A DNA stretch of 64,000 nt from Candidatus Omnitrophota bacterium (GTDB lineage: Bacteria; Omnitrophota; Omnitrophia; Omnitrophales; Aquincolibacteriaceae): NCBI GenBank assembly GCA_030698625.1, contig JAUYMS010000021.1:6227-70226 (forward strand), given 5' to 3'. A program made the translations under genes and the position numbers. The stretch's first letter is position 1, and every line of letters starts with the position of its first letter. This document shows, piece by piece, positions 34,120-61,800 of the stretch. The notes under the pieces were generated by a model that searched no databases, was not told where the DNA came from, and worked only from the letters and a program-made list of their open reading frames with translations.

Positions 34120-34150
34120 CCACCTAATTCTAAATAAGGAGGTGAAGCCA

Positions 34151-34768: not shown

Positions 34769-34846
34769 ATGAAATCGAGACGTCTACTAAAACTCATAGC
34801 CATTGTCACATCACTTTGTTTTCTCTGTGAGCAAACCTTGTATGCC
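34769..34846 (+). other. signal-peptide-like N-terminus of giant protein (MKSRRLLKLIAIVTSLCFLCEQTLYA)
   Basis: Basic n-region, hydrophobic core, A-x-A-like end. Read from sequence. Confidence 0.5.
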
Positions 34847-37800: not shown

Positions 37801-40800
37801 GATATCTCTGCTGGCCGCTATCGGCGAGAAAAAAGACGTCACGCAACTGCATAAGGCAGCGCTGGGTAATGCCCTGCGTTTTCTGAAGAAACGCGCCGCG
37901 GTACGGTCCGAGCTGCGCAACGGGAATAAATTGGTTTTTGCGGGCCACAAATTGACCGAAGCCGATTTGCCCGATCCTGACGCATTCCGGATTTTGTTCG
38001 GAGAGGCGGGCGAAAAGGTTGATGCGGGGCTCGACCTCCCGCAGCGCTCGGAGCTGCGCTCGACTGGCTCGACTTCCGACGAGTTTGCCAAAGAGGAAAA
38101 CTTTCTCAGGACCGAGGCCATGATTGCCCATTTGTATACGGGGCGTGTCATCGAGTCATTGAGCCGAAACCAGATTCCCACGTGGATCACCGGTTTTTTT
38201 CATGACAAGGTTGTTAACGGCAAGAAAAGAGAATCCGTCCTGACAGCGGCGAGGCGGTATTTTCGGCGCAACCTGGCCAGGGGCGTTGCATCTGTGTTAG
38301 GGTTGACGGGCTACTGGGGAGCGATCAAATCGACTGCGGCCGACCGGTATATTTTTTGGCTCGACAACGACGAAGAGCTGCAAGCCTCGGGCATGGAGCC
38401 CGTTCTTATTCACGGTGATGATTACCGCATGGACAAGATACCGTTGAGTGAAGCGCCTTCCGACATCCGCGAGCAGTTTGAAACCCTTCAGCATGCGATG
38501 ATTTTGGCGGAGCGCTTGAAGTTGGAAGACGCCGACAACCCCGAGGGAGATGCCATTGCCCAGGGAATCAGGCAGTCCTACCGCGAATTCTCAAGACGCC
38601 TCTACGACCTCGGACTGCGCATTTACGATCTGCATGAAGGTAAGGTCGGGCTGGAATTGGAACAGGTCTTCGATTTCCGCCGCCTTGCCCACCTCATGCT
38701 TGCACTCAAGGGCAAAATTCACAGCACCTATGACCGCGGCCTCATGACCGAAGCGGAATACCGTGAAGCGCATTACCGCCCGATCGCCGATTCGCGGACC
38801 CGCAAGCTTCACCGTATCGCGCTGGGTGAGAACGGCCGGCCGCGCTATCTCCTGGGCCTGGCGCATCCGATTTATGCGGAAATCGTCGAAAACGGCGGAG
38901 GGGCGGCCGTATTAGAATTTCGCCGCCAGACAGAAAGCGGCAAAATTGAAGAAGTCTCGCTTAATGAAATCGACGACAAGACGGAGTTCTTCGAACGTGA
39001 CGTGGCGCTCGACCCCGAAGTAGACGTTCGCGCTGACGGTAGCCGCCGCTACCGCCTGCATTTCGGCCGGGAGATGCGCTATGAAGAAGACTCGCATATC
39101 GATCTTATCCTTTCGGCGGACGGCACAAAGCTAACGATTGAATACGAACAAGGGGAGCCCGCTCTTTACGTCTCTATTCCTTTAACGAAATGGCGCATTC
39201 GGAACCGTTTCGTGGTGGGGGCTGCGGTTGCGCTGCGGCACTGGACCCGGGGGTGGATCAATCTTGTGCGTAGTACGCCGACCGGTCTCGAGCCCGTGGC
39301 CCTCAAACATTATGACTTTCCGGCCAAAGTGTTGATCCGCCACAAGCCGACGCCCACCAAGCTGTATTTTGTCGAGTCTCTCCTGCTCCCGTTGCTCAGT
39401 GACGAGTACCCCGAAATTCGTTATCCCGGTGTCTACGACGATCTGGTGTTCAACAGCGGTAATTTCTGGGTACGGCTGCTGCGTGTGATGCACCGCGCTG
39501 AGGCAGCGGAACCGGGCCGGAAGGGCCCGCTGGAAGATGTCAAAAACATGCGCACGGAACGCCACTTTGTGCTCGAGGACGGCCGTCTCCAAGAGCGAGC
39601 CGGCGAATCGCGAGTCGTCTTGAGCACCCACAGCCGCATCGAAGAGCTTTTCCGCTTGTGGCTTTACGATTACCTGAACGAAGTCGAAGCGGCAGACACT
39701 ATTGAGGAGGAATTTGCGATGGATTCGCGCGCCCTGGATTCTGAGCTCAACGATGTGCTCCGCCGGACCATCGAAGAAAAGATCCGAAAAGCCGGGCTTG
39801 AGCTAAATGCGACCATTCATTCCGTCAACGGCGTTCAGGCGGCAGAGGTCGGCGATCTCCTGATCAAATTTATGCGCGTTCCCAAAGAAGAAGGCGTTTA
39901 TGAATTGAGTCCGGCCTTGCAGCGATTCTATGAGGAGCGTATCAAGCCGGGGGCTGGAATGGAGTTCATCGCAGGCTCGCTTGTTGATCTGTCGGGGCTT
40001 GGGCCCATCAGGCTCCGGGATGAAGACGGGCAGGAGCAGACCATTCGGCTGGGGACTGTGCTCGTGCAGCCGCGGGCCATGAGCCTGCGCGAATTTCTTT
40101 GGCGTCTCGACGAGGGGATCGAGCAGGCGCGCGCCTTCGCCGACGGGGACCGCGAACGGGACTACATGCGCTTGGCCGAGTCTTTGCTCGAGCAATCGAT
40201 TCGAGACGATATCGCGCTGGGGCGGCAAGGCCTTGTCAACACCCGGCCGCACCGCAACTTCCATCAAAAGGACGTCTTTACGCGGCACGGAACGGCCATG
40301 CCGTTTCATGCGTCACTCAGCAGTTTGAGTGTCCGCATGGAAGATTACGATCCGGCGGGCTATTACCGGGTTCTCGATGATACGTCCGGAGGGAAGTCCG
40401 TTGTTCCGCCGCGTTTTCAAGCCACCTATCGCAAGCTGCTCGACCGGTTGCTGCCGAGTAAGAAACGGTTTGAGAGGCGTATTTTCGGCAGGAATCCCGA
40501 GAAACACCGTGTCTCGCGCACGATAGACTGGGAAATCGCCCGCGCTGCCATCAACTACATCGCAGAGCGTATGCTTCCCGTGAAGTTCCGTCTCCTGCGC
40601 GAGCGTCAGATCGAGCCGCTATTGGCCTCCGATAATGCGCTTGCGGAATTTAAGGGCGTTTCGTTTGAAACGGCGCGGAAGCGGCTGCTCGCTTATGTGT
40701 TTATGGTTAAAGAAACGCTTGCCTACGGAAAGACAGCTCACTATGCCGCTCTTGAAGACGCCTATGTCGACCTGCTCGGGGATCCCGCTGCGACGACCGG

Positions 40801-43800
40801 AGATGAACTTCTCAGACTGCTCAAGAGCAGCTTCGAGGCATCCCGTCAAAAGCACGGCTCTCTTCGCGACCCGAGTTCCCGAGATTCGCTGTTTATCGCG
40901 CTCTTTTTGAGGGATGCTACCGAAATTGTGGGACAAGGTCCCCAGCGCTCGGAACTCCGGGCGGACCGCACGCTCGGTGAAGTGCTCGATTCCATCATTG
41001 ATGACACACAAACAGAAAAGTGGACACGCGAGCGTTGGCAGGATGAATTTGAAATCGTTCTGAAATACGTTCACCCCGACCTCGTCAAGGAGGCGGGAGC
41101 CCCCGTGCCGGAACGGACGGCGCTCGAAGCGAGAGCTGTCGAGATTCGTGAGGCCGATCAAAGCGGTGTTATGACGACGCTCGTCAGCAATCTGCCGCCG
41201 CCGGGCGGTTTTTTCGGCAGCGGCGGCGCTATCGAGTTTGACCTTTTCAAGATGTTATTTACCTCTTATGCCGCGCATCTCAACCGCATCCTCAAGGGCG
41301 TGCAGGAAGATGAATCTCTCGGAGAAGTCGAAGTGCCGACGGAAATCGACATTACCGCGCCCATTGAAGAGCAGCATGAGCTTTTTCGCCATGTCCTGCG
41401 TTTGACAGAAAGACAACGCGGATACAGCATTAACTTTACGCTGCTTGTCGCGGGTCTCGATCCCGATGAGATCAATAATCCCGGCGCAGAGTACACGCCG
41501 GCCGCGGCCCTGATCCTGAGGCAGGCTGGGTTCCATGCCGCCCATTTTGCCAGTGACATGGCCCGAACCTTTCGTCCGGAGGCGGAACCTGTACTCGTGG
41601 ATCCCGAAGATGTTTTGATTATATCCCGCTTTAATCCTATTCGCCACATCACGGTCAAATCCGCTGATGGCGGGTATCCTCCGTATCTCGTGGTGGAATT
41701 CAGCCGTGCATCCGGTGAACAGATCAGCCGGTTTCAACGTATTCATTTATTGAAGGCTGCATTGCCCGACCAACCGGTTGCCCAAGAGGTTACGAGCGAG
41801 TTCGTGCGTAGTGGTTTCGTGCATGAGCTTGGGGGCGAGTCGGGGTTAAATTCCTTTGCCTTTGATTACGACACAGCTCCCGAAGAACGCGCGGCGAAGA
41901 TCGCCCGCTTGAAGGCACTCGCCGAGCAGGAACTGCTCCTGATCCAGGACCGGTACATGCCGGAGGTGACTCAGGAGACCATTGAAAGATTCGCGAAATT
42001 TGTCGGCCGCTCGGAGCAGGAAAGGCATGCCATGGCGTTGGGTTATCCGCATATTGTGCACGAACAGAAGCTCGGGCGCGAGCGTACTCACTTTGCCAAC
42101 AAGACGGGTATCGCATCCCCGGGGCTTGGTGCCAATGACGACGTTCAGACACGCCGCTTTCGCCGCTTGCGGGTGTTTTGGGAACAGCGCAATCTGAGCC
42201 GCTTGAAGGACGCCATACTCTATGCCGGGGAAGAGGAGGAGTCGGCACGTCGTGATATCTCCGATCGGGTCAGGCAAGGGAAGTTGGAATTGCCTGAGGG
42301 TGACGGCGCGGAAAAGAAATTCGAGGAGGAGGTCGCGGCACTCACCGCGGATAGAGAGCGCCTAACGGTTTACTCGCCGCTCGTGGCCCTGTATTTGGCT
42401 GCCGACGGTGATGGGAATTTTCTCATTCCCGATAACGCGGCTGATGCCTATCTCGCATGGCTTGAGGACCTCAGCAAACAAGGTCTGCAAAAGAAATTTG
42501 CCGAAGCATTGAAAGAGGCCAAAGCCGGAATCAAACCGGCCGGTGAAACACGGACCGACGGACTGATTGCCGATGAAATCGGGGATATCCTTGAGCTGGA
42601 AGTCCTCTACCGTCTTCTCTATGAGCATCTTCGAACAGCCTCATTTTTTGATCGCGAGAGCCGGTCGAAATTTTGGCTCAATCTGAACCATTATCACGAG
42701 TTTTACCGAAACAGCGATGTGACTTCAAGCCGTCTCTGGGCGCTCGCGCGCTCCCATTTTGAAGACAGTATTCGCAGCGATCTTGGCGATGCCTGGAACC
42801 ACCTGCAGGAGTATTTCCTAAAGCCTCAGGATATGTCCGCAGGCGCAGAGGTCAATGCGGCTGCCACCATGATCGCCAATCAGGACCGCAAGTTGTTGCC
42901 TGCGGAACTGCCCGATCTTCTTCGCGGCGCGACAGAAAAGATTCTCGGTTCACAGACCGTTCATCTGACGAGTGCAGCCACAACGGCAGATAGGTTGCCC
43001 GGTATTTTGAGCACTTTTCTCAAAGGTCTAGACCGCTTCGACCTGCCGGCGCTTTCGCTTGCGAAACGAGAGGCTCTGAGTCGCCGTCAGGCCTTTTATG
43101 ATGACCTCATCCGTATCCGAGAACTTTATGAGACCGGTCGCTTTGAACAGGCGCTTCGCCTTACGAATGGCTTGCTGGGTCATGGCGAAGATGCGCCCAA
43201 GCTTTCGAAGAAACAGAGGAGAGCTTTAAGGAAGGGAAAGGAAGTTGAATTGCCGGAGGCCCCGGCCGGACTGCTGGTGCCTGCAGCCGAAGAATCGTTG
43301 CGCGAGATGCAGGCGCGTTTGCGCGAGGCGATGGCAACGGCCTCGACGGCAGCTCCTCAAGCCGATGAATCCTCTGCGGTCGTCGCAGAACCGGCTGATG
43401 TCGCAGTCGTTGAGCCAAAAGCAGTTCCCGCTCCGAAAGAAAAGCGCGAGCTTACGCCGAAACAAGAATTTATGGCTCTCGAACAGATCAGTCCGGGACT
43501 TCGGAATCTCATCGGCGAAATACTGGAGCCCTCCGCGATCGCATCCAGAAGCAACAAGCGATGGATAGCGCTTCACAATGCGTTCTTCAAGTTTTTCTTC
43601 TCAGATGACGGCAGTCAACCCAATGAATTAGAAAAGCGTGCCTGGGATATAGTGTTGGCCGCTTTTAACCGTGGTTTGGCCAAGAAACTGGCGGATGGCC
43701 GAATGGTGCCCGAGATGCGGATGGGCGATTTCTTCGATATGGCTCAGGACTACGGTAAAGCGACCGACAGACCGGAGTCCCAAGCGGATATCATGGTGCA

Positions 43801-46800
43801 GCCGACCAAGACACTGCTGCTGATGTCTTCATCTATGGCGCGCGTTCTGACGGGATTGATTGCCGAGGAAGCCGAGACACAGCCGGCAACAACAGATCTT
43901 GCGCCGCCTGCCGCGAATATGAGTCCCGCTGAATATGCTGAATCCTATCGGCAGAATATTCTCATTAATGGAAATCGCCTTCAGGACTTCTTGTCGCATG
44001 TCCCGGGTGCCTTAGTCGGTTATAAGGTAACGGCCGACATCAAGCAGAAGGGCCAGGGCGCGCCGCTCGCTTTGGCCCCCATATGGGCCTTCCGCCAGTT
44101 CGGGTTACAGCCTACGTTCCGCGTGATTCCCGACTTTGTAAGCCAGGCAGGGGAAATAAAGAATATTGCTTATATCGAAGCGACCGAAGGAAATCCGCCG
44201 GCCGTGAGAGTGGAGTTTAATAAAGCCTTGGAGGATCCGCGTACCGGGCAGTCTTTTACGGATGTTGCGCTTTTCGTGGTTAGAAACCCTTGGGCCGACT
44301 TCGCGCGATCAAGCGACAGCTTGGAGGACGTTGAGTTTGATACCGAAACCGTAAGGGGCTATGCATTCCGACCTGGGGATGCCCAAGTTGAGCGCACCCA
44401 AAAAATCCGTCAGTTGAGACAAGCCGCATTGGATCAGAAAGTCGTCTTGCGTGTTCCGTACTTATTGCCGCTGCATGAGGGGGCTGTAAAGCGTATTGCG
44501 GAAGCGATGGGACGTACGGCAGCAGAGCGGTGGGCCGCGGAAACGTACTTTGCGCTGGGCTTCAGTGACCCGAGCGGCAATACACCGCGGCGCATTGAGA
44601 GGTTTCCCGATCCGGAAAGGTCTCAGCCATTAATAGAAGGTGCTCAGACTATTGGTGACGCAGCTCTGGCCTTCAGTGACGGCGCCCGCGCGCGTATTAC
44701 TATTTTAGAAAGCAAAAAGAATTTGATTGCGCTCTTAGCGCACCCGATTTTTGAACCGTTGATGCGGCTCATGACGGCCCGTGACGCCAAGGGCGAGTGG
44801 GTCGTCAGTGTGCGAAGCGCCGGAAAGGTGGCCGCACAACTTGATCGATTGGCCGGTGACGTGATTCTGCCTGCGATCGATGATATCGCCAAACAGGCGC
44901 CCGAGATCCAGGATCAAGCGGCGCTTGCCCGTTTCGCCGCCGAACTCAATCTGGCCGCCCTCACCCAAGTCCCGAGAAGGATATATCAACAGCCCGACAT
45001 CAATGATATCCGCATACGATTAGTAACGGAAACCGGTCGGGCTTGGGATGCGGATCTCAGCAAGTTTAAGGCTGTCGTAACACCGCCTGGTTCCGAGAGG
45101 GACCAGACCCTTCGTGAAATTGCGGCAAAGGAAAGCCTCGTCATCGCCGGATTTGATCGTGAAGATACTACAGAGGAGCGCACCGCAGCCATGGCAGAAG
45201 CCTTAAGCGACTACCGGAAGAACGCCGAAGGGCTTGTCCTTCTGGATTTTTCATCGCCGGAAACATTGACGGCGTCAGCCCTGGATTTGGCGCATCGCTT
45301 AAAGACGGGAAGATCGCAGGCTGTCGAAGCGCGCCGCGCCTATTTAGAAGCCCTGGTTTCGCTTCGCAAACTCGCCGAAGCGGGGGATCAGTCGCGGGCA
45401 TTTACAAACGCCGCTGCTTTGCTTGCGACGCTCAACGACGGTGAGGATAAGGAGCGCGTCGAATTATTCCGCGGCCGCGTCCGTGCGGCACTCGTAGCTA
45501 ACATGCAGTCGCATCTGGATTCTGTGGCGGGTATGGTCACGGATGTTCACAAATCTTCCGGCGATATCGAAGCCGCGACGGCTGACGCGGTAAAACTTCA
45601 CGATTTATTGAGACCTCTCGTTGCCGGAGAGACCGGGCCTTATGAAACGGCGCTTGCATTCGCGCAGACCGGTTTGGAACGTAAGAGGGAAGCGGAGCAG
45701 CGGACCGCGGCTACTCGCGGCGCAGATCTTAGCCTCTTGGAAGGGCATCTGGAACTTGCCGCAGTGGCCGACAAACTTGAGGAAGCCGAGCCCGAGTGGG
45801 ATAAGGCACAGGCGATTATCCGGGAGGTCAAATTCGAGGAAGGCGACGAGAAGACAAAGTTTGAGGGGCTCATTGCGGCAACGGAGAAAAATGTGACGGC
45901 ACTCAAGCGGAAAAAACAGTTTGCAGTCGAACTCGCGACATTGCAAACGGATGGGAAGGCAGCTTACCTCAAAGCGCAAGCGTATGCCAAGCATCTGAAC
46001 GATGCCGATCCGGATATAGTGCTTGTCGAGCATATGATTGAATTGCTTATCGTTGCACAGGAAACAAAAGAATTGGCCGATTTTAGCGTGGCTGACCGGT
46101 TCTCATACCATTTGTTGGAAACGCGGGTCTTTAGGGCTTACGGGGCAAACGATCTTGCAACGCTTGCGGCGGGCAATGCTCTGATAGTCCGGGAGAATAT
46201 GGAGAAACGGGATTACACGGTGGAAATTGCACTCGAAGAACAAATCGAAAAACTGGATGAAGCAAACGACGTCCTTTTACGCCGGCGCGAGGAGCGTCGT
46301 ATCGATGAAATCCTCAAAAAGATGCCGGAGCGTGTGCGGCACGTAAGCCCCACAAGCTATGAAGCTTTTGCCAAGGAGATTGCTCAAGTCCGTTCCGATA
46401 TCGAAGGCCTCGCGCAGTATGATCATGCACGCATGCAGGGAACACTGGCCGCAAATCTAGATGCAGTTGAAATTATCTTTGAGGGCCGTAGGATTCGAGC
46501 CCGGATTGCCCGAAGTGCCAATGAAAGCCGCAAGCCGGGCGTCAAGAATCAAGCCGGTCATTTTCAGCGTGCGCGCACAGAAATCGCGGGGATCATTGAT
46601 CGGCTCGTTCGCCGTTTCGGCAGACCCGCTCACACTACCGCAGATGAGCTGCGAGCCGAACTCGATCGCGCCGCAAGTGGTTTCGATAAGAAGAAAAGAT
46701 CCGAGCTTCGAGTTGCCGAAGAAGTAGCCATTCTTCAGCCCGGTGAGAGCGCCTACGATGCTATGTTTAAAAACGGGGTCGCGGGAGGGCTCGAGGCATT

Positions 46801-49800
46801 GCGCGATTTTCTGGAGGAACGTTTCTTAGAGGGATCGGAAACGCCCTATGTGGTAAGGATTGTGCCGACCTCGACCGAGGAGAGAGCGGCATTGGAGGCG
46901 GATTCGGAAATCAGCGGGGTATCACCTCTTTATTCGGGGCCTGAGGCGGCCGACATTTTGAGCCGGCTGCGGATCTCGCAGATTTATCTGAACCAGGCAG
47001 ACTTGATTGAGATTTCTCTTTCCGAAGCGATTCCGTTATTCGGCAGATCCACAGATACGATTTCCATTGTCGGAGATGCCGACTTTTTCGCAAAGCTTCG
47101 CAACAGAAGCAGCTACGCAGCAACCATTAAAAGAGACGGCTATACGCCGGTAGAACGCGATGACTATGACACGATTTTTACCCGTGTGCGGCAAGAAGAC
47201 TTCCATGTGCTGGAAAGTGGTTGGGGATTTAACGCCGCAGAGCACCGCTTGGCATTTCGAGATGCCTTTGGCGTCGATGCACAAGCTGCGGATCTCTTGC
47301 TTTCCGAGGGCGAGTATTTGGAGCTTGAAAGGAACCGCCTGAGTGCACGAGTTGAGGCGGATCAGCAGCAATTGCGCGAAGACCTGGGGCAGGCGATCGA
47401 AGCCACCGGCAAAGGGAAAATCTCGAAGCTTGCGAGCAGGGCCTTGGCGCGAGACGAAACGGCAATCCATGAAAAGATTGATGCCCTGCAAAGTCAAGTC
47501 TCATTGGATGAGCATGAGGCTCCGCTGCTGTCGGGAACGCCGGAGACTGTCTATCAAACCGCCAAGCGAAAAGCCCCTGAAATATCCGCCCGGATTAAAT
47601 CGATTCAGGAACGGCATGCGGCACGGGAGGCGCTTGTCGGTGAGCTCGAATCTGCTCAGAAACTTCTCACCGAAGCTGTCCGAGCCAAGCAAGAATCCGG
47701 AGACATTGAATCCGAGATTGCCGATCTCGCGACCTTGTTCGAAGGGTGGGGTACTGTTGTGGACTATGCCGCCGAGATCAAGCGGATAACCGAAGCGCTC
47801 GAGGTCGCGATGGAGACAATCAGCAAGAAAATTGCCGCGCTTAAAGAAAGCGAAGTAATTGAAAAACCTCCCCTCATCGATGAGGCGACAGACTCCTTGC
47901 CCGCAAATGTCTTACTCAGGGAATTCCAGGCTGCTGTCGGGGAGTTGGGCGATCATTGGGCGGTGCAGGTACTCGAAGCGAGGCATGATCCGCGCTGGGA
48001 TCCGACTGCGAAGATAACCTTACCGGACCAGGGGTCCCAGGTTGCCGGTGCGGTGCGGGACATTCAGAAATTTGTTCGGGAAGTTCAAGCCATCAAGCCG
48101 TTTGCGGATGAAGAAAGCGGTAGGGAAGGCATTCGTGAGCTCGCCGAATCGTTTTCTTCAATCTATCGAACCATCGGCCAGCGTGCCCTCCGGTACGTCG
48201 GTATCGCGGGTACACGTGAGGATGCTGAAAGAAAGTTGAGAAAACAGGAGGAGGCCGCCCGCCAGCGGTTCATGCAGCGGCAAGATACCGGTATTCACGG
48301 CCCCGCTTCTAATACGGCTGCCCGGCGCGCTAAAGACAGGGCCAGAGATAAGACTCAACGTGCTCGTCAAAAGCGGAAGCATATGGACTATACCCTCTCC
48401 TACCTGACGGTGGCGCTCAGCATTGTTGAAGCTAATTTCAGGATGCTAATGCAGAGGGTGGCCTATGAAAATGCCTTCCTTCATCCGGTTAGAATCGAAG
48501 CCGAACCGAACCGGGAGAAGGTCAAGGAGGCGCTGAAATACATAACGCATAACCTACATGAGCGGGCGGGGGGGACATACAAACATCCGCCGCTGCGTAT
48601 GGGCATCGGCAGGCATGCGACTGACCTCGCCGAAGAGGTGGGATCCTTGATCGCGAATGTGGAAAATGCCGCCGACTTACAAACAGACGTGATCAATCTC
48701 GTCTTGAGATTAATGACCCTTGTCTCAAACCATGATGTGCTTTTTCCCGAACTCCTAGACAATGTGGGCGGCGCATACAAGGTGCAGTCATTCCTGACGG
48801 ATGAGATGATTCACTATGTGACCCATCTGCTTTCAGCCGCAGCTATTTCCTATGAGGAATCCGACTTGCGTACGAAGTTCGGCCTTCCGGATAATCTGGA
48901 TGGGACGGATGTCCTTGCGCAGTTAATTCACGAGGCCAAGGCGAATTGGCGAATAGCGCTTCACTCGGACGTGGAAGGAAAGGATACAGCGACACATCGT
49001 GAGAATCTTGCCGAGGTGTTGAAGCTGATCGCGTTTTCCAAAATAGTTCAAGATGACGATGACCTTTACGACAGATTGACTAAAACGAAGAGCTTCCCGG
49101 CAACCGAAGCGCTTATCGCCGAGAACGCGGACCGAATCGAGGCACTCCTCCGGCGCTCGCGGGAGGCCCATGGCCCCGACGGAATTTTTTATATTCGATT
49201 TCCTGCCGATCATCCCGACCTTCCTTTGGCAGAATTAGCGTTCTCCGCGCCGTTGGGGTATCTGCACGTATTAGCCGGTCCGGCAAGGACTCCCAATGAA
49301 CAGCATTCCTTGAGCGGCTATCCGGTGATCGGAAGCAAGGGGAAGAAGCCCGTTTTCTATGTGGAATATCCCTTCGACTACGCAGAACCGCAGCCGGTGA
49401 CGGCGTTCTTTTACAACTTTGCAGAGGAGCCGGAAATGCTGAGCTTCGCCCTTACGCTTAATAAATTGCGCGAAGAGGCGTCATTGGCGTCTGTATGGCC
49501 GGCCCTTGAAGGGCTCACGCGATGGATCGACGATCAGGCTCAGATCGTGACAATGGTCAACGCCGAAGGCAAGGAACTGGACTCAATGGGCTTTATGGCC
49601 CGCCGGCACCTGGAACGCGTGCTGACCTTAATTGCGGATAAGGTCGGTAAGACTGCTGCGCTGACGGCCGAGAAAATCGAATCGACTGACGGTAAAATGG
49701 CGCCGCAATACCGGGTGAAGATTGCTCATGAACATGGTTCCTCGATCGGCGAATGGGACGAGAGCGAGTATGACAACCTCGTATTTCTTATTAAGTTGCT

Positions 49801-52800
49801 CGGCCATGTGAAGCTTGCCGGCGAAGGGGAACCCGCGGAGCTCGAAGATGCAGAAATTTTCAGGACCCGCCATGATCACACGCTCGTCGGGGAGATGGCT
49901 AGAGACATCGACGGACGCACCGGCTACTTTGACGTTCGCATTCAGGGGCGCGGCGAAGAACCCGAGGAAGTCCTTATGACTCTCAAAAAGCCCGTGCGCT
50001 CAGAGCTCAGGGCAGAAGAGGCGGCCGTGCTGCAGCCGGGACAGACGGATTATAATCAGTTATTTAAAGACGGCATGCAATCAGGCCTAGACCGGCTAAG
50101 CGGCTTTCTTGAAGATAAGCTGCTGGAGGGAGGCGACTCGCCGTTTGTCCTTCGCGTGGTTCCGAGGAACCTTGAGCAGTGGAATGCACTGGATGAATAT
50201 CAACAGTTAACCGGTGTTGCGCCGCTTTACACAGGTCCGGAGGTCGCGGCGATTCTTGCCTCGCAGGACATCACAGAGATCTATCTCAATAAAGAAGATT
50301 TGGTCGAGATAGCATTTACCCCGTCCGGCGATGTTTTTGGCCGGCCGGCCGACACCGTGACCGTCATCGGCGATGCCCAGCTCTTCGAAAAACTGAGAAA
50401 CAAAGAGGCTTACCGCACGGCTATTGCGCGGGATGGTTATGCCGCCTTAAGTGAGGAAGATTACGATACGGTTTACACGCGCATTCGGCAGGAGCTCTTC
50501 CATGTATTGGAAAGCGGTTGGGGTTACCGGAGTGATAGTCAGCAGGCAAAGTTTCTGGAAACCTACGGAACCGATGCCGAGGCGGCTGAACTCCTTCTTT
50601 CCGAAGAGGGATACCGGGATTATGAGAAGTCCGTCTTGCTCGACACAATCGGTGTAGATCAGACGCGATTACGGCATGCACTCGAGCAGATCGCCGAGCC
50701 CATTCACAAGGGAGCTATGAATCCGCTCCTCGAAGCAGCTCTTCAGAGCGAGGAAACCGAGATCCGCGGGGAAATTAACCGTCTGGTGAATCACGCGGCT
50801 TCTGTGAGGCCGCTTCCTCTGCAGCGGACAGATATTGAGCCGGTTTATGCCGCGGCAGACGCTGCCGTCGTTGCCATAGCGATGACGATCGAACAAATTC
50901 AAGCGCGGCATGGCGCACGCGCGAAGCTGACCATCGAACTGGCGGGGTTTCAGGAGCTCTTAAGCGAAGAACTTGCGTCACGTGTGAGCGGTCTTACAGG
51001 AGAGGGCTTGCAGCAAGTTCGGGCTGAAGCTTTGGATCAAGCCTCGCGTCAGCTTACCTCTGAGATCGCATCGTTGGCCGGCACTTTCGGCGGGTGGGGA
51101 AATATTGCCACACATCAGGAAGAGCTAAAGAGAATAGCCGGCGAGTTGGAAACCCGCGCAGCGGCGATTGGCCGAAAAATCCGGGCGATCACCCTGCCGG
51201 AAGTTGAGAAAGAAATCCCTGCGGTTATTGAACCCGCGGCAGACGAAGGCCTAGCCTCGAATATCGTGCTGCGGAAGCATCAGGAACGGGCCGCACAACT
51301 GATGCATCACTGGTCCATGGTTGAAGCGGCAAAGCAGCCGGACCGCGACAGAATGGCGGCGAAAATGCTGGGCGAGATGCGCGATCATGCCGCGGCGATC
51401 GCGGCGGCCCCAGCCTATGCCGACGATGAATCGGGCCGTGCGGCCATTAGCGAGCTTATAAAAGAGTCACATGCCCTGTCGCGCGCCTTGCGTCTCGAAC
51501 TTCACGCCATGAAGGATGCCATTCAGGCTTCAGCCGACCAATTGCCCAGGGTTCTCGACGTGATGAGCCGGGCAGTCGAGAAGCAGACCGCGCGGGCACT
51601 ATCCACCATGCGGGGTAGATCCGGCGGTTCGTCAAGACGGATGATAACGAAAGTGATAGGAAAAGTGAATGAGGAGCGCGAGGCCTATGCCAGAAAAAAC
51701 GGCACAATCATGCAACTGATCGTTGCCGTCGCTCATTTTAATGAGATGACACAGGACCTTACTGGAGACGCCGTGAACATCGGCCTTCTGGATTTCGATG
51801 AGTCTGACCCTGTTGAGCTGGCTGTCTGGAACGCGGAGCCGGTCCGCTCAGAGGTTAACCGGGACGTGCTTATCCGTGTTTTGAGGCGCCTCGCCTCGGA
51901 CCTTCGTGATGAAGAGGCCCATGACTATGACCGCGACGAAGGCGGAATTCCCGGAATCGAAAAGAGGTTACCCATTGGCGGGCCTTCATTTGGAAGAGCG
52001 CACGGTGAGGCGGCCGCGCGCATCGAGTCTTTGATCGACGACCTGCCGACGGATACCGATGAACTGCGCGGTCAATTGACACGCGCCCTTGTTGACGTGG
52101 CGAATTTGCTCAGTATGACCTTTACCTTCTATACACAGCTTCTCCAGGGTGATGCGAAAGCGGATCGGGAAAACAATTTCACCACTTACGATATGCTCGG
52201 TGCCCTTGTGGCCTCATACCGCGCCGCGGGTCTCAGTGTCAACGAAAGCGCTATCCGCGAAATGATGGGTTACAGAAAGGCATTTGAGGCGGATTTGACA
52301 TTGCGTCATGCCGCCATGTCGGCACGGCGTGTCTGGATCCTGGAGCGAAAGAAAGACGCCGCGGGAGAAAATGCGCCGCTCCACGATGAAAATTTTTCGG
52401 AGTATATGCGCTATGTCGCTTATCTGAAACTGCTTCGAGACGAGAAGGCGCTAAGGGATGAACTGGAGAAGGCAGCCGGCTTTGCCGGTATTTATGCGTT
52501 AATGGAGAAACACGCAGACCGTATCGATGCGTTACTCGACGAGGCGCGACAGGCTCACGATGGCAGACTGAGCGGTGAGATCAGCATTCCTCAGAGTGAG
52601 AGCACTCTTCCGGGATTCGTCATCAATGCGACAAATGCAATGGGCGTAATTCATGAGTTGCAGATAACGGGTCAGAGCGATGTCGCCGGCCGCCTCTTTT
52701 TCGATGCGCCGCGTGCGGATTTCACCGGCGGTGTAGAGTATTATATCCAGTGGTTTGAGCAGGACCGGGATCCCACAAAGCGTTTAAACGCTCAACACCT

Positions 52801-55800
52801 TCCGGCCAGCGACGAGGGCATGGCGCTCTATGCTATCGGGCTCAGAGACTTTATACGGCACTTCGAGGCCGGCGACTTGTCGACGGAAAACGCCCGGATT
52901 GCGGCGGCCATCATGCCGACTGTGACCAGCCTCCTTGCCCGGCTCGAAAAACGCGCCCAATTAGTTGAAATGGTCAATACCGAAGGCAAACGTCTGGATG
53001 CCGCTCAAGAAGACGTGAGGCGTCGCGTGACGGATCTCTTCAAAAAGCTACTTTATCGAAAGGCAGATTGGCTTACTCTGACGGCAGAAACCAAAGAGAT
53101 TCGCGTGCAATCAAGCCCGGTACATCCGACAGAACAGAAAAGCGTAACCCGCTATTCCGTAACCGAGAAGATGCCGCAATCAGTCGTTACCTCGGACGAC
53201 CTCCCGTCAAATTACGACAACTTAGTCTTTCGTTTGAAGCTACTGGGAGACGTCAAGAAGAAAGTCGGCGATGCTCTCGCTGACATCGGTGAGGAGCGTT
53301 TCAATACCCACCATGATCACCTGCTGGTGGGGGAATTGACATTCGAAGAGTCGGTAAGATTCGGTATTGAAATCCAGGGCCGCGGGGAGAACCCGGAAAG
53401 CGTCAAAATTACAATTCTTGCAATGGATGCGGATGTCACGATAAGCCGTCCCAGGGGTATTCGACGCTCCGAGCTCAGAATGCAGGACGACGATGATGAG
53501 GAGGATGCTAAGCTGACGGTTGCCGAGGTCGAGCGCATTCTTTCCGAAAGCCCGAGTGTTGAAAATCTATACCGCATTATGGATAAGCTCACGGAAATCA
53601 ATAAAATTCCCGGTTCGAGCAAAAACAATCTGAGCGTTCCTCCTGCGATACTTTCATCCCTGCTCCTTCATTATGATGCCGCCGAGCGCGTGCTGAAGCA
53701 GGGGCAGGGCCTCGCCATGCAGTTGACTTACATGGGCGCGATCGCGAGTTGGTATCGCCGTCACCAAGACGACATTCTGGCCGCCTATGTCACGTACGGA
53801 GACGTCACCATCCTTGAAGCCCTTCGTGATTTCGCGGCTATTTATGCTCCGCAGGATCACATAACGAGTGCTATTCAAGCGGCGATATTTGAATTCAAGG
53901 CTCCGGCGGTTCAAGAGGAGAAGGCCGTGGAGAGTGAGGACGATGTCCTGCGCTTGAACGGTTTTAAACTGAAGGTGCGATACGCCGATCTCGAAATGCG
54001 CCGCCGGGCGACGGAAGACGTGCTCTACGGAGAATGGGCGCTCGCACCAGCTGATGCCTCGAAGCTTATGGGTATTGACGGCGACCGCCTCCGGGCGAGG
54101 CGCGCGATGCTCATGAAATATTTCAAATCCTTGCAGCCGTCTCCCCATGTCATTTTTGACCCCATTTTAAGTCCGGCACTCTTGCGTTTAAGGCTTACAA
54201 GTGTGCGAAATACGGTACTCGCGTTCCCCGAGACACTCGAGGAATTTGAAAAGCAGCTCCGGGAAGAATTGGCGAAAGAGGGTCTCGCAAGTGATGGGGA
54301 ATTCTTCAAGCAGCGTGATGACCTCTATGGCCGCGAGATGTGGGAAGCCGTAGAAAACGAGATTCGCCTGGAAAGCGAGACCCGGGCCGAATCCAACCGC
54401 GAACGTTTGCACCGGAACCTGCTGGTGCAGCAATTCCGCGAATGGTTCCTGGGCCTGTCGCCGATATTGCCGGAGGAAGCCATGCCACAAAATGTTTTTA
54501 CGGATGACCGGAGCTCCTTTGTTGTTCCCTTTGACGTCGTGCGCCATGAATCCCGCGCGACACTCTCGATCGCACCCAGGTTTCGCAAGGATGAGAACGG
54601 TGAGCCCCGCACGATTTGGCTGCGTGCGGCGGAGCACCCCGTGACCCGCGAAAAGATGATCACGCTTCACCTTCGCCCCGACGGCGAGGTCCTGGGTTAT
54701 GCCTTATGGGATGAATACGACCAGAAATTTCGTGGATATGAAGGACCGATGCTCCACACTCAATATGCCAATCCCGCTCGGCGTCACTTCGAGTCCTATG
54801 TCTATGATCCGTACAACGTCACACCGATGAAGCCGCGCCGGATGAAGGTTCGCGGCACGATTCGTGAGCAGCGGCGCATCACCCTGCTGCCGTCGTTTGA
54901 GGGCAAAGATTACAGCAATGTCTATAACGTGAATTTCAAGACGAAGGAATCCGTCAAGGTTGAGACTGTTGCCATTGCCGGTGAGAGCCGTTTTATCCTG
55001 CATCTGGCCGCAAAACCGGGGAGGCGGGAGCAAAAGATCGTACGCTACGCTCATGATGACGAAGTGAGGCTGCTTACTCCCGAAGACGAGTTGGTGAAGA
55101 GGTTAGCTTCCGATTGGACAAAGGAAATGCCGCGCGCAATTGCGTTGGACCGGACTAAGGCGGGCCTTCTGAACTTTCGCAAAGAGAGCGTCGATCAACA
55201 GGGCTTGACGGTGAGACTGCCCAAGGTCAAGAAGGATTGGGATCGCCAGGTATTTGTGACCTTCCACCTCCAACGCGTCGACGGAAAACTCCAAAAGGTG
55301 ATTGATGTTTATGGGAGAAACAAGAAATGGGATGAGGAAGGCCGTCCTGTTGAACATATCTGGAGCGGATATTACGACGAGGATGAGGATGCGATGATCG
55401 TCTTTGACGATTTTGAGCGGCGGCGTCTGGTCGGCCACGAGCGCTATGATATCCAACTGCATGCCTGGAGTTTGCGTTATGCCGAGCGCCCGGGGGATAT
55501 CTTTACACCGGCCGAGACTGAGCATCTGATTCGTCTCGCGACACTCGATAAGCCGCATACTTTGGAAGAGGTGTGGAAAAATTTCGGAGGTGAAAATTAT
55601 TCAATCGAGTATCTGGAAAGTGTCTTCAAGAAGCTGCAGTCGCCGCGCTTGACGCCTGCGAGGCGCCTTGTCCATGTCGGTAACAACCGGTACTCGTCTC
55701 TGCTGAGGATCCGGATTACCCGGCATAATGAATACACGCACAATCACCGGCGTTATCATCTGGCCTACGACAACTACGACCTGGAAGACGTAACATCCTG

Positions 55801-58800
55801 GACGGCCTTTGAAGATAACCTGCCGCTGACGCATTACTTTTTTGACCACAATGTCCCGACTCTCCATTTGAAGCATGCCTGGGATCTTGACGGCAAACTG
55901 ATCGGATTCGGCACGCGGCGTGTCGACGGCCTGGGTGAAAGTTTTGTCTTCGGTAATTACGGACTCGAGAAAAAGGCGCGCGTTTCCGTAACGACAGCAG
56001 GAAACCGATTCCGCGTTCCCGGTAAGATGGGAGAAGTGGTCGCCGGTGTGGTCGTTGATGGGGCACTGATGCGGGTCGATTGGTTTCGCAAGGGCACTGA
56101 AATTCATAATATCTATGACATGAGCCAGATCGGCTTGGGAATCATTCGCTTGAAAGACGGGATTAAGCCGACTCGGAGCGCGACGCGGGCCGAACACGGT
56201 GAACTGCATGCACGGACGCTGCAAGCCTTAGTGGACAAGACGTGGACCGCCGCATGGATGCTCGAAGATACCGTGCAGCGTGCTCTTGACGAGAATGTCA
56301 GTGCGGCGCTCAGTAAAAGGCAGGCAAATGCCGCCAAGATCGTCAACCTGGGCCCTGATAGCCGGGGCACGGGCATCTTAGGGGCTAATGACGATGACTA
56401 TGGCATCACCTTCGGCGTCCAATTCCAGAGTCGCGCCCATCTCAACAGGTTCCTCAAGAAGGGCGACATGACGGCGCTTGAAGAAGTGCGCCGGATCTTT
56501 GAGCGTGCAGGCATGCAGCTCAGTTTAAAAAAGAAGGATACTAAGCGCACCGAAGGAAAAAAGATTGAATACCTCGGTCTGTACCGGGGTCGGCATATTC
56601 CCGTCAAGATCCGCCTTTATGCGAGGGCCGACAAGAAAGGGAGTATTTACAACGACCGGTTTGAGAATCAAATGGGCAAATTAAAGCGTCTCCGCGCCAG
56701 CGCCTTCCACCTCAAAGAGGAGATTAAAAAGTTTAAGGAATTTGCGCGCGAGGCAGGCATCTATGGCGACCTGGGAGATGTGCTCATGGAACAGCTCGTG
56801 ATCCAATCGGGAGAGGCAACCCATGCCGGCACCTATATCCGTGGCCGCGGAACCGCGATTAAAGCTCTGGATTGGATTCTCAACGAAGGGTACGGGTATC
56901 GCGGCAAACCTATTCGCTGGGCGGAAGTGAAGAAGAACTTCAAGGTTCATTATCCCGGTTATACCGAAAACATCCTGGCCGAGTTGAACGCCAAGACGTG
57001 GAATCAGTTGCTGGAGATGGCCAATACATTGCGAGGAGAAATCGTCGGCCGCAGCCGGGTTTCGCGCCATATTCGATCGGGAGTGCGGAAGGGAAAACTT
57101 GAAAAGGGTCTGCGCGTTATTGACGGCAGGGAGTTTGAGGGCATGTACCTGCTTTCCGAGAATCATAAGCGCATCACTTTGTGGGGATATGTACGCCTCA
57201 ATATTCCGCCACATGCCAAACCCTCGGAAATCGAACTTCATATTGATCCGGCGCCGCACATTGCGTCTGACGCGTGGACGGCCTCTCTGTGGTACAAGCG
57301 TCCCTCGGTGCCCATCGACTCGGTCGTCATCTTTAGCAAGGGGCAACTTATCGAAAAGGGTCCCCTCGCGGACGGGCGCGCAGGCTTCGCGCCTGTACGC
57401 GGTCCGATACCGGCTATCAAGACAAAATTTCGCGTTAGGGGAACCGAGGCACAGCGGTCTCGTTCGGCGACGCTGAAGGAAATCAAGCAAGCCTATCAGC
57501 AGAGGCTGTGGCTTGTCAGCGGGGGAGGCAAGATCCCCAAAGTTCAACCGCTGACTATATACAATGGTGTCGAGGAGTTGCTTCTTGCGCAGGGTGGCCA
57601 AACGATCGAGATTCCGTTAGGAGATGAATTCAACGGGAAGCGTGCGCGGCGTTCCTGGGTCCTTTTTCCAGAACTTGGTCCGGATGCCCGCGGGGTCGCC
57701 TATACCAGGCGCATCGGCAACCGGACGATCAGAAAGGAATTCGTACTGTTTCAGAACGGACGATTTGTGAAGGCGAGACGCGTCCAAAGCCAGCGCTCCG
57801 AGCTGCGCCAGCACGGTTATGGCACCGCGACAGTGGATGAGATTGTTTCGGACTCGAGGTTTCGCACCTTGCGCTATGACCGTAATGATTTTCTGTCGCG
57901 TCAAACTCCGGAGGCCCCGGTTAATTACGCTGCGCTCCGTGAGAGTTTGAAAGAGCTGGTCTCATACGCGGCCGGCCATGCGATGCCCTATCGCGATGTC
58001 GATGCCCCCAGGATCCTGGTCCAGATGGGCCTCGAAGATAAAGCCCATATATTGCAATTTCTCGATCCGAGTGCTATCGATGCCGTCGATGTGTTTCTAC
58101 ACAGCCTCATCTACCGAATCCGCATTCAGTTCATCGAGACGCCGACCGGTCTTTTTAGATTGAACGGAAAATTCCGGACTTCTTTGATCCAGTCTGATGA
58201 TCAGAACTTCTACACGATTCAAATTCCGATTAAGGAAAAGGACGGCCGCGATTTGTTTAGTCCCGAAGAGCGGGCAGTTATTATCGCCTATGACATAGCG
58301 TATGCCGCGGGCCTGTCGAAGGGGATGGATGAGGAAGCCGCCGATGCCTATGCCTGGCTCTTTACGGGCCTTTACAGCGTTATCTTCTTCTCCAAGCCGA
58401 ATGCGGTGAAGAGCAAGTACGAAAGACTTGCTCGGGAACTTAAGGAATTCGGCGAGCCGCAGGAATACATGACGCGCATGACGGTGGGTGACGCCGTGAT
58501 CGAGATCAAACAAGGCGACCTGACACTCGAGGCTGTGGATGCGCTGGCCTATGGCTCGAATCCGGATATTCAGTTCGGTATCGGCGCAAGCGGCGCCATC
58601 GCGCGAAGAGGGGGTGACGCCGTATTAGCGGAAGCTGCTATGAAGCCGCGCCTTGCGCCGGGTGAAGCGACATCGACTACTGCGGGCGAGATGGCCGCGA
58701 AACACGTGATTCACGCGGCTGTTTCTGATGAGTTCCTGAGGACCGATCTCAATGTGATTCGCGATGCTACCCAAAGCAGTCTCATTGAAGCGGACCGGCT

Positions 58801-61800
58801 GGAAGATGTTACCTCACTTGCGTTTTCTGCTTTCGGAACGGGTACGCTCGGCATTCCCTATAACGAATCGGCAGACGTCATGCTCGATGTCATCGAAGAA
58901 CATCTGGCAAGTTCCGGCACATCTCTGAAGAAAGTGGTCATCGTCCTGTTCGAAACAGATGCTTACGACGAATACGTTGAGGCGCTCATGAGACGGAGCC
59001 GCGGCCGGTCGGAATTGCGCGACGGTATTTCTGCCCTGCTTGCGCAAATAAATCAGGAGCCGATCCCGCTCATTGACGGGCCGGTAATGATCATGATGGG
59101 CGTGATTGCCGTCACAGTGTTTCTTGTATATTACTTCATGGTCGTGCGGCCGCGCTTGCGGAAATGGGTGGAGGAAGAGCAAAAGAAGAAAGAGGTCAAG
59201 GCGTCGCGGAAGCGCCCGGTGAAGTCAGCGCGGCAGGATAGGCTCAATTATGCCGCCGAGCAGCTCGGGAAATTTAAGGCCCAGGCCACCGATCAGCGGT
59301 ACAGCTCGCAGGGGCAATTGAGAGATGCCCGCGATGCGGCGGCCAGTCGTTACAAGCAAAGGTTCGGTGAGGATAGCACCCATAAGCGTTTGAGATTAGA
59401 TCTGGCACTTGCCTTCGAGGAGATTATGCGCGACCGAGGTGTTGCAGAAACCACGATCGAAGCGGACTGGCCGGACAAGGTGAAACGGCCGCGAGTGGAC
59501 AAATGGCGCAAGTGGTTCCGCAAGCGCGGCACGGCCCTGCTTCTATATAGAGAGTTTGTTGAAAAGCAGAAGGACGATACAGAGCAGGCGGCACGGTTTG
59601 AATTCAAGGAAGGACAGTACCAAAAATACATCGATAAGTTCGGTGAAGATCCGAAAGACAAGCGCCGTCGGCAACTGAAAGCCTGGTTGGAGACGAGTTA
59701 TGAGAAAGCGCTGCGCCGTCGGGGTGCACCGGCAGAATTGCAGCCGGTCGTCGACGAGCCTGCCGCTGTGGTTACTGAACCGGCGGAACTGCCTGCCGTC
59801 CAGGGGGTCGAAGCTCAGCCCGAGCCGCACCCGGAGCCATCGGTAGCAGTTGCCGAATCGGTTGTCCATACGCCGGCGAAGCCGACAGCAGAGTCTACCT
59901 TGGAAGAGTTTCGCGCCCAAAACGCGGGGATATACAGCGGCATGGCCAGAGTGGCTGTCACGACGAGTTCGACCCGTGAGCGGGCCGATGAATTACTGGC
60001 TCAGTTTGATCAAGCCGTGCAGTCTGCGATAGAACGATTTGCGGCTCTGCTGGATGAAGAAGAGGCGGCTCGCTTCCGTGTCATTGCCGCTACTACTGAT
60101 TTTATTCTGAGCGCGCGCGCAACGATTCAGGATCATGTGCAAACCTTTGTGGATGCCGATAATGCGCGCGACTTGTTGAGAGAGGCTCTTTCAACCATTG
60201 ACCATGATATTCGCCGCCGCATCAGGCACATACGCATGGCCGACGACGGAACTGTCCCTGCCGATGCCGTAAGGTTCGACGATATTTTCCAGCATCCCGG
60301 AGTCACCGGTTTTCGGGCATTGGTGGATGAACAGCCTCTGCCGGAAGCTGAAAAAGCAGAGTGGAAGCCGCGCGCGGCCGATATCGCGGAGCAGTTAAAG
60401 GTTGTCTTGGAAGATCGCTTGGCGACGGGTGTGTGGAAGACGGCGCCGGGCATTATCGCGAACCTTGAGAGGGAATTACGGCCGCAAGTCGTCAATCTTT
60501 CTTTGCACGGTGATGCGATCAACCGGCATGAACGGGTGCGCGCGATTCGCACGTGGTTGTCTGTGAATATCCCGCATGAACGCGGTAGAAAGGATCAGGC
60601 CGATTACCACAACCGGTTGCGTGAGGTCGGAGACGTCGTTCGCCGATTGCGAGGAGAGTCAGACGCCATTCTGGCGGACCCGGAGCGGTTTCGTGCCGCC
60701 TTAGCCGTGCACGACGATCCGATTGCCTTCGGTGTCTTGGCGGCCAATCAGGGCGATTTTGAATTTGCCGAAAAAGTTTTAACATCACTTATTCTAGACG
60801 ATGTATCCAAGTCCAGAGAGGAGCAGGCGGTGAGCGCAAATGCGGCACTTGCCCTATCGGGACTCTACGATAAACGGGGCCGTTTCGGTGACGCGTATCA
60901 GCTAGTCTCGACTCAGGCCGCATATCTCAAAGCAGCAAATCCGGATTTGTCGGCTGCCGGTGACGTGCACGCTTCCGATACGCTCGCCAGGGTGCTCGTG
61001 ATTCGGGCGATTAGAGATCTTGAAGAGAGCCAAACAACGATGTTGCAGGAAAATTTGAGCCGTGATCCGGCAAACCGCTGGGTGGGCGGAGTCGTTATTT
61101 CATCCGCTCGAGTCATCGCAGGCATTCGCGATTTACAGCGCAACGTGGCCGATCTTTCGCTTCGCGGCGATGCCATTCTTGACCACCCGGCCGTGCAAGC
61201 GGCGCGTGAATGGCTCAATCGCAATCTGCCTCACGACACGGAAGGTGAGAGTAAAACCGCTTATGACCAACTGACCGCGGAAGTCGACCGCATGGCCAGC
61301 CAGCTTGTAGCTGAGTCCGCGAAAATCATCGGTGATCCGGTAACATTCAGCGAGGTTCTGAGTAACCTAGAAAACCCCGTCGCCTTTGGTGTGCAGGCAG
61401 CCTACGACGGCGATTTCGATTTCGCGGAAAAGGTCCTGCTGTCAATCGCGGGGCGCGACTTCCCGGCATTATTTCGGTCGCGTGCAGCAGGTACGACTTC
61501 AGAGAACGATGTGACGCTGCAACTACGCAGCACGGAGGCGGCCCGCCAGCTTGCCATTCTTTATGAACGCCGGGGACGCAGTGGCGAAGCTCATGCATTG
61601 CTCGAAGAGCAACTCGATTGGCTTTATCTGGTCAACCCGTGGCTGCGTAAGGAAGGCATAAGTGTCGGCAGTCAGAGTCGGCTGCGAGCCGTGGCGGCAA
61701 GCCTGGAAGCAACGTTGGCGAATAGCACGCTTCAATCCGCCGAACTTTTTAGAGCGCGCGGCGATCAAGCGGCAGCGCGAGAGGGTTATCGCCAAACACA

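Follow-up and report, generated by a model that had tools for sequence, protein, structure and literature searches.

An ancient tandem duplication set between RSELR pentapeptides in a giant gene of a Candidatus Omnitrophota bacterium

Giant open reading frames (ORFs) are common in Omnitrophota, and they are poorly conserved and poorly understood (Seymour et al. 2023, PMC10066038). Here we describe a giant gene in a 64,000-nucleotide stretch of DNA (the window) from a metagenome-assembled genome (MAG) of Candidatus Omnitrophota bacterium (assembly GCA_030698625.1, contig JAUYMS010000021.1). The proteins encoded in the window are exact matches to those of this MAG (locus tag Q8R76_03090 and others, MDP3919758-785), on a contig of 85,091 bp. 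The giant ORF (34769..64000, plus strand) begins at its first ATG at 34769, comprises at least 9,744 amino acids (aa) in the 29.2 kb that are visible, and runs past the end of the window. The frame, which contains position 46697, is open from a stop at 34706 (open 34709 onward) to the window end, and its N-terminus is signal-peptide-like (MKSRRLLKLIAIVTSLCFLCEQTLYA). The pentapeptide RSELR recurs along the ORF, first directly after an N-terminal head segment, and two of the stretches between successive RSELR motifs are diverged copies of one another.

Results

Two colinear modules lie in tandem in the giant gene

Module copy 1 (46697..49996, 1,100 aa) is followed directly by copy 2 (49997..53464, 1,156 aa); all features of the giant gene given here are on the plus strand. 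Both copies open with RSELR, and a further RSELR (53465..53479) closes copy 2 and opens the next segment, which is unrelated. The starts at 46697, 49997 and 53465 agree with a preliminary description of this DNA, which had placed RSELR at the module borders and had claimed that the modules are colinear paralogs over their full length, with clearly less than 50% identity. BLASTP joined the two copies in one colinear alignment with 366/1181 identities (31%) and an E value of 7e-134 (E > 0.01 had been named as the mark of no significant similarity), running from residue 1 of both copies to 4-20 residues before the next RSELR. The identity by MAFFT was 33%. The shared blocks quoted in that description were all recovered (LQPG..Y, PLY.GPE, GDA..F.KLRN, YDT..TR.RQE.FHVLESGWG, LLLSE, IQ.RH.AR, GWG, NLVF.LKLLG.VK and HDH.LVGE...IQGRGE.PE.V); for one of them, given as VIGDA.FFAKLRN, the block exists and the wording slightly blends the two copies (IVGDADFFAKLRN / VIGDAQLFEKLRN).

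Identity varied along the modules: it was 46-55% over the ~200 N-terminal residues, dropped to 12-30% in the middle and rose again to 41-58% at the C-terminus. The best-conserved N-terminal part (46697..47326, ~210 aa, again 46-55% identical; equivalent to ~49997-50623 in copy 2) gave a dN of 0.43 with dS saturated, and this saturation makes dN/dS between the copies uninformative. At the DNA level, blastn found no match between copies 1 and 2, third-position identity was 0.30 (roughly random), and dS was inestimable. This indicates that the tandem duplication is ancient, not recent, as the preliminary description had held; both copies have been kept under constraint. Because the divergence is so great, the two copies most likely have distinct or complementary roles.

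The apparent duplication might instead be an artefact, arising from strain variants mis-assembled in tandem or from a spurious long ORF, since the MAG was built from short reads and giant genes are known to be hard to assemble. Mis-assembled variants would not be expected to show 31% aa identity, saturated synonymous sites, a length difference of 56 residues and many indels between the copies. A 29-kb open frame in DNA of 53% GC cannot arise by chance, and the upstream neighbourhood is reproduced in an independent Logan contig, up to ~2.4 kb before the giant-gene start. We regard the likelihood of an artefact as negligible.

A domain search of the modules, as had been proposed, returned no significant family in Pfam, NCBIfam, PHROGs, PADLOC or PDB sequence profiles. 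The best match, an aminoglycoside acetyltransferase, was disregarded, as it covered only 47 residues at E 0.05. An AlphaFold2 model of module 1, computed from a two-sequence alignment, reached a pLDDT of 38, so that its secondary-structure outline alone is usable, and that with caution. With this low confidence, the predicted outline consists of an alpha/beta N-terminal part, a long, helical and poorly conserved middle, and a mixed, conserved C-terminal part.

The duplicated unit is one RSELR and the body that follows it

A tandem duplication has a defined phase at its outer ends only. We determined the phase from z-scores of local alignments, both between the copies and across the outer junctions. 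The starts of the two copies matched each other with z = 67 and their ends with z = 27. The last 150 residues before copy 1 did not resemble the copy ends (z = 1.5 and -0.4), and the first 150 residues after copy 2 did not resemble the copy starts (z = 1.0 and 0.4). Because similarity is high inside the copies and gone beyond the outer junctions, what was duplicated is one RSELR together with the body behind it, exactly as far as the following RSELR.

A third copy is carried by a second giant gene of the same genome

A HMMER profile built from the two copies was run against 1.84 billion representative proteins and gave a single match, in one stretch with E 3.5e-88, to a protein of 6,157 aa (P0001; MDP3921122.1, hypothetical protein Q8R76_10010 of Candidatus Omnitrophota bacterium). 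The shared locus-tag prefix Q8R76 ruled out our reading this protein as an ortholog from another organism; it is the product of a second giant gene, a paralog, in the same MAG as the window. Residues 644-1826 of P0001 form a third module copy that extends exactly from RSELR to RSELR, directly after the head, and is 23% identical to copy 1 and 25% to copy 2. At its N-terminus, P0001 has homology to the window gene, with residues 1-643 corresponding to residues 1-562 (28% identity, E 3e-56). The other P0001 cassettes, as we call the stretches between motifs, are unrelated to those of the window gene. All seven RSELR motifs of P0001 are exact, with no near-variants. With 31% identity, copies 1 and 2 resemble each other more than either resembles the third copy; on the simplest reading, the tandem duplication is therefore younger than the split from the copy in P0001.

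Searches for further relatives of the module came back empty. Module 1 and the three-sequence alignment had no match in a word-indexed protein search, contig searches revealed no further copy in Genome Taxonomy Database (GTDB) species genomes or Joint Genome Institute (JGI) metagenomes, and tblastn and an iterated hidden Markov model (HMM) found no module in 80 fetched loci that carry the head. When the module was compared by hhalign with a similar-sized segment of L002, the closest relative, the probability was 0.2. As far as public data show, the module family is an orphan limited to one genome. The proposed comparison of copy number among orthologs yielded no ortholog with another copy number, and the third copy found along the way is a paralog.

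RSELR is invariant at the peptide level

The visible ORF contains 11 exact RSELR motifs, compared with 0.04 expected from composition. The first (36455..36469) directly follows the head, and the others start at 36707, 37904, 38045, 40946, 46697, 49997, 53465, 57794, 59006 and 63308. Relaxing any one position of the motif revealed no extra site anywhere in the ORF. With the seven sites of P0001, the motif is strictly RSELR at 18/18 sites in the two giant genes of this genome.

The codons are not fixed in the same way. Arg is encoded by AGG, AGA, CGG, CGC, CGT or CGA, Leu by CTG, CTC, CTT or TTG, and Glu by GAA or GAG, and the sites have no exact 15-mer in common. Because synonymous codons differ between sites, selection on the motif acts on the peptide. 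We also considered internal translation starts after each RSELR, and rejected them as Met is the next residue at just 1/11 sites.

The motif is enriched throughout a family of head-bearing giants

An alignment of the head segment detected 178 relatives in JGI/European Nucleotide Archive (ENA) metagenome contigs, from which 80 loci were fetched; in the protein index it detected three fragments, one of them named Omnitrophica. Head-bearing relatives in the protein index sit mostly on contigs of 2-3 kb. Assemblies seem to break up at giant genes of this family, and such genes are probably under-counted. The fetched loci contained 81 head-containing open frames in 78 of the 80. The head stands at the start of very long frames, most of which continue past the 10-kb flank and therefore exceed 3,800 aa.

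Among the 5-mers that recur in these frames, the commonest were RSEVR, RSEAR, RAEVR, RSELR, RSEMR, RSEIR and RSETR. The pattern R[SAT]E[VALMIT]R occurred 267 times in 184,000 residues, with 5.3 expected. As a control, the remaining open frames of 200 aa or longer, from these loci as well as from the window, were scanned, and 33 motifs occurred in their 222,000 residues against 4.7 expected. Of these, 25 fell in seven long ORFs that have the look of pieces of other giants; with the seven set aside, the control frames were at background. A logo of 285 sites confined the conservation to the five core positions. Flanking residues were enriched for small side chains at -3 to -1 and +1 and for acidic ones at +2 to +4, the composition to be expected of a linker site. 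Individual ORFs often preferred one form (RAEVR at 10/11 sites in L033, RSEVR at 8/8 in L052, RSELR at 5/5 in L002).

Codon choice at the motif was biased. Ser was encoded by TCN at 93% of sites versus 69% elsewhere in the ORFs (TCC, 49% versus 22%), including 11/11 sites in the window, and the first Arg by CGC or CGT at 76% versus 39%. This bias may stem from interchange of Ser, Ala and Thr by single mutations, or from a constraint on the nucleotides. In the latter case the motif could be an element of the nucleic acid, either a recombination hotspot or a signal for mRNA processing or translational pausing, and the conserved peptide a by-product; recombination between sites would naturally give in-phase duplications. 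This is difficult to reconcile with synonymous variation at all five codons (including AGR/CGN for Arg and CTN/TTG for Leu), with the missing common 15-mer, with the lack of any Rfam match in the window or of nucleotide similarity between the modules, and with the absence of near-variant peptides, by which the amino acids are under selection. We therefore find it very improbable.

The spacing of the motifs bears on whether the protein is cut at them. The first motif always comes directly after the head, at residue ~540-690. Motifs are often paired or tripled ~20 residues apart (aa 2234/2254/2274 and 2881/2901 of L014; 2407/2427 and 2898/2918 of L046; 671/691 of L009), or they bound mini-segments of 8-60 residues, such as window 37904-38044 (47 aa) and P0001 aa 1966-1995 (30 aa), and there are spacers among them that are themselves duplicated. 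Cleavage at the motif, if it takes place, would set short peptides free. As the main alternative, the giant protein may stay whole, with the motif as an inter-domain linker or a docking site for a chaperone, a secretion or anchoring adaptor or another partner, and the modules as neighbouring domains of a scaffold. The position of the motif between domains in a flexible-looking context would suit this, as would the motif's absence from some head-bearing giants. Published work, too, treats Omnitrophota giants as single membrane-associated proteins, peptides of one of which have been detected (PMC10066038), and has never shown their cleavage. On the other hand, a passive linker would not need five invariant residues, as found at all 18 sites of this genome without a variant. 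Double sites 20 aa apart and mini-segments are odd as linkers and resemble spacers between cleavage sites, and the invariable placement of the first motif behind a hydrolase-like head finds no ready place in an uncleaved scaffold. On balance we think it rather unlikely that the protein stays whole, while giving the idea real weight.

Cassettes as units of duplication

Cutting all ORFs at the motif and comparing the segments all-against-all revealed many homologous pairs that align from residue 1 to residue 1 and through to the segment ends. Other in-phase tandem duplications were found in P0001 (segments 5/6, 65% over the first 230 residues), L077 (2/3, 74%) and L013 (2/3, 50%), and L057 contains a non-adjacent homologous pair (segments 4/6). 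Since prior cutting could bias such a comparison, it was repeated on uncut ORFs. Among 183 homology blocks, 30% of starts and 31% of ends lay within 15 residues of a motif, versus 7% of random positions, which amounts to a four-fold enrichment; the median distances to a motif were 34 and 70 residues for starts and ends, versus 152 for random positions. Recognizable domains tend to respect the same borders. In L061, an aldose epimerase (760-988) and a GGDEF domain (1657-1829) each lie within one segment and end ~10 residues before the next motif.

The preliminary description had proposed that RSELR-delimited units are evolutionary, and probably functional, building blocks that are duplicated as cassettes. 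The evolutionary part holds up, through the exact phase of the unit, the RSELR-bounded copy in P0001, the other in-phase duplications, the fit of domains to segments and the positions of block ends. That the units are functional building blocks too, in the sense of being physically released by cleavage, is what we infer.

The head segment resembles hydrolases in its predicted fold

The head (34769..36454, 562 aa) ends at the first RSELR and is a candidate processing hydrolase. Its model, of medium confidence and based on five input sequences, predicts a TIKI/TraB/erythromycin-esterase/ChaN-like fold, with the alpha/beta core of that superfamily. NCBIfam gave no match to the head, and the PDB sequence-profile search nothing relevant.

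Among 75 heads, H83, Q89, E111, E168 and R437 were invariant, R263 was conserved in 99% and H466 (in GGFH) in 95%; position 81 was D, E or T. In the structure paper on RRSP, the catalytic His-Glu pair is His85-Glu113 in Bcr135, the 2His/2Glu set of RRSP consists of E3900, H3902, E3930 and H4030, and members of the superfamily cleave esters or peptide bonds (PMC6254334). By sequence spacing, H83 and E111 of the head are 28 residues apart, as are the pair in Bcr135, with an acidic residue at -2 and a second His later. This conserved His/Glu spacing, together with the second His, makes it probable that the head is an active hydrolase of the TIKI/TraB/EreA superfamily. We consider that it may act as a peptidase on the motif.

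Other segments of the giant gene

Two further segments carry recognizable enzymes. The segment at 36707..37903 (RSELR to RSELR, 399 aa) is a complete 3-dehydroquinate (DHQ) synthase with Pfam DHQ_synthase and DHQS_C domains, aligned to model positions 11-395 of 407 of NCBIfam NF004852. An intact-looking DHQ synthase inside a protein headed by a signal peptide is in an odd place for a cytoplasmic enzyme of the shikimate pathway. The segment at 57794..59005 (RSELR to RSELR, 404 aa) has a Macro domain in its C-terminal half (Pfam E 8e-13) that ends at about residue 400, ~4 before the next RSELR; NCBIfam models for ADP-ribose-binding and O-acetyl-ADP-ribose deacetylase proteins end at 394-400. The stretches between motifs behave as whole proteins do.

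The Macro cassette raises the thought that the motif is a site of modification, such as phosphorylation of Ser, ADP-ribosylation of Arg, or an ester or isopeptide cross-link that an esterase-like head forms or removes, and that the modification regulates each cassette. Macro domains bind or hydrolyse ADP-ribose, the head superfamily includes esterases, and each of Ser, Glu and Arg can carry modifications. At 22% of family sites Ala stands in place of Ser, which rules out Ser as an obligatory acceptor, and a regulatory mark needs no exact position at a cassette boundary. We hold this to be improbable.

A second internal duplication (60413-60961 vs 61073-61657; ~190 aa, 38% identity, E 1e-28) was detected by chunked self-BLAST. 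Because this comparison of the whole ORF with itself showed only the module pair and this small duplication, the window gene is not a repeat protein. Four hydrophobic segments were flagged by Kyte-Doolittle analysis; one is the Gly-rich loop of the DHQ synthase domain, which leaves 2-3 plausible membrane segments. A strongly hydrophobic stretch (VMIMMGVIAVTVFLVYYFM) in window 59006-59120 begins ~20 residues after the RSELR at 59006. This cassette would open with a membrane anchor, if released.

The last visible segment (63308..64000) is 35% identical to residues 13219-13773 of L002, near the end of that complete ORF. Because of this resemblance to the C-terminal segment of the closest relative, the window gene may end shortly past the window. 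Residues 5845-6157 of P0001 are homologous to the last segments of L024 and L058. The last motif-bounded segments thus appear to fall into conserved tail families common to otherwise unrelated giants, which suggests an architecture of head, cassettes and tail.

Surroundings of the giant gene

Immediately 5' of the giant gene lie a gene for a ComEA-like helix-hairpin-helix protein with a signal peptide (34091-34471) and a divergent gene for an XRE family transcriptional regulator (33448-34005, minus strand; name from the NCBI source). No tRNA or Rfam element was found in the window. The Logan contig mentioned above (L001, SRR13727534, 12.1 kb) is an independent short-read assembly from the same organism that has the upstream housekeeping genes, and its neighbourhood match reaches the gene just downstream of uvrA before it breaks.

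Discussion

We favour, as rather probable, an ancient in-frame tandem duplication of one cassette within a polyprotein-like giant gene whose cassettes are separated by a processing site. Genes of the family have in common an N-terminus that resembles a signal peptide, the head of ~560 aa with its His/Glu set intact, and a long string of cassettes that varies greatly from gene to gene. R-[S/A]-E-x-R would mark the point, in exposed linkers, at which the protein is specifically processed, the cut probably falling behind the second Arg, and both modules would be released as separate proteins of ~120-130 kDa. Duplications and transfers that are in phase would survive, since only these would yield a complete releasable unit. 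As the processing enzyme, the head would be the first to suspect, and a protease acting in trans is just as possible. Whatever reads the motif would co-evolve with it inside each genome, and this would account for the strictness of RSELR in both giants here.

The sequences themselves show the duplication, its age and its phase, the constraint on the motif as a peptide, its enrichment across the family and its coincidence with domain and homology borders, and the head fold and its conserved residues are supported by prediction. Cleavage is something that we infer, and with it the protease responsible and what becomes of the products. A number of observations weigh against such processing. A signal peptide ahead of enzymes of cytoplasmic type (DHQ synthase, Macro) does not fit easily with plain Sec export followed by processing in the periplasm. 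Some 10 long ORFs that carry the head, with its conserved residues intact, contain no motif: L010, L027, L029 and L073, all on one 2.17-Mb contig (Ga0315338_1000003), and L004, L022, L028, L031, L053 and L080. One genome thus holds at least four motif-less head-bearing genes. The head may not strictly need the motif, or another delimiter may be used in those lineages. Among the homology blocks, 31/183 run through a motif, as is expected for colinear relatives, and the duplication at 60413-61657 lies inside one segment, out of phase with RSELR. The codon bias of the motif is unexplained by a peptide-site model. As for the head, Foldseek hits to its model were below significance (E 0.1), it had no Pfam match even at E up to 10, and its superfamily also holds esterases and a haem-binding protein, so that the fold implies no protease role.

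Extended to the family, and here we are more hesitant, the processing of cassettes would make many Omnitrophota giants true polyproteins. A TIKI-like head or a dedicated partner protease would cut R-S/A-E-x-R and free dozens of unrelated proteins, along with short spacer peptides, from a single translation product, the cassettes would be duplicated and shuffled in phase, and the fourth residue of the motif would co-evolve with its reader.

Internal duplication in a giant protein is ordinary; a strict pentapeptide border that is at the same time a family-wide delimiter is unusual. The duplicated modules are a clean natural experiment, in which the evolutionary unit is the stretch between two strict pentapeptides. 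As no cleavage points are known, whether Omnitrophota giants act whole or cut has been left open. With a motif and a hydrolase-like head common to many metagenomic giants, cut sites can now be predicted exactly, and there is a candidate enzyme whose putative catalytic residues can be named. The motif also gives a rational way to divide giants for structure prediction and expression. Should the polyprotein reading be true, it would provide the cleavage points that have been lacking for these giants and establish a principle of bacterial gene organisation not described before; should the motif turn out not to be cut, it would remain a highly specific signal in need of an explanation.

Comparison with known systems

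The window gene can be compared with the Omnitrophota giants, or Archaeovorins, which come from the same phylum. These too have a very long ORF that opens with a signal peptide and for the most part resists annotation, with unrelated enzyme domains scattered along it and repeated content inside. Proposals that they are cleaved after translation exist; West-Roberts et al. (2023, bioRxiv 10.1101/2023.11.21.568195) suggested C39 or S8 peptidase domains as processors, with cleavage points unknown. These papers define giants by length and Pfam content, with thresholds of at least 30,000 aa (West-Roberts), at least 10,000 aa (2026 preprint 10.64898/2026.06.07.730766) or an ORF of >20 kb (Seymour). 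As far as it is visible, the window gene is smaller. Its visible 29.2 kb is above the 20-kb threshold, and its at least 9,744 aa (~9.8 thousand aa visible) compare with 10,000 and 30,000 aa for an ORF that continues past the window. Where the giants are marked by many enzyme Pfam domains and many transmembrane helices, the visible part of the window gene has DHQ synthase and Macro as its only enzyme Pfam domains and about four hydrophobic segments. The West-Roberts, 2026 preprint and Seymour papers do not mention the R-S/A-E-x-R motif or a TIKI/TraB-like head, and a full-text literature search for RSELR, RSEVR, RSEAR and RAEVR returned unrelated text strings only. We found no description of a motif-delimited, possibly polyprotein-type organisation in the literature.

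The head shares its predicted alpha/beta core with the TIKI/TraB/PrgY/erythromycin-esterase/ChaN superfamily. It differs in having no match to the Pfam profiles of that superfamily and in a ~290-residue helical insertion between the halves of the core. To our knowledge, no known superfamily member is fused to a tail of several thousand residues.

MARTX toxins are likewise huge secreted polypeptides with variable, unrelated effector cassettes that are shuffled between strains and released at short linker sites, and one of their effectors, RRSP, has the same TIKI-type fold that is predicted for the head here. MARTX toxins are processed by a cysteine protease domain that is activated by inositol hexakisphosphate and cuts after Leu, and they carry RTX repeats. 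In contrast, Pfam found no cysteine protease domain or RTX repeat in the visible 9,744 aa of the window gene. The TIKI-like domain is the conserved head here, whereas it is cargo in MARTX.

Viral polyproteins and nematode polyprotein allergens resemble the window gene in their short invariant sites with unconserved flanks between independently folding units, and the allergens consist of tandem duplicate units with a basic cleavage motif between them (PMC3079579). Those systems are viral or eukaryotic and their proteases are known (3C/NIa-like, furin-like), whereas the window gene belongs to a bacterial host, its units are mostly unrelated and its cleavage is putative. By analogy, MARTX toxins, viral polyproteins and nematode polyprotein allergens would be the closest functional counterparts of the RSELR-delimited giant gene.

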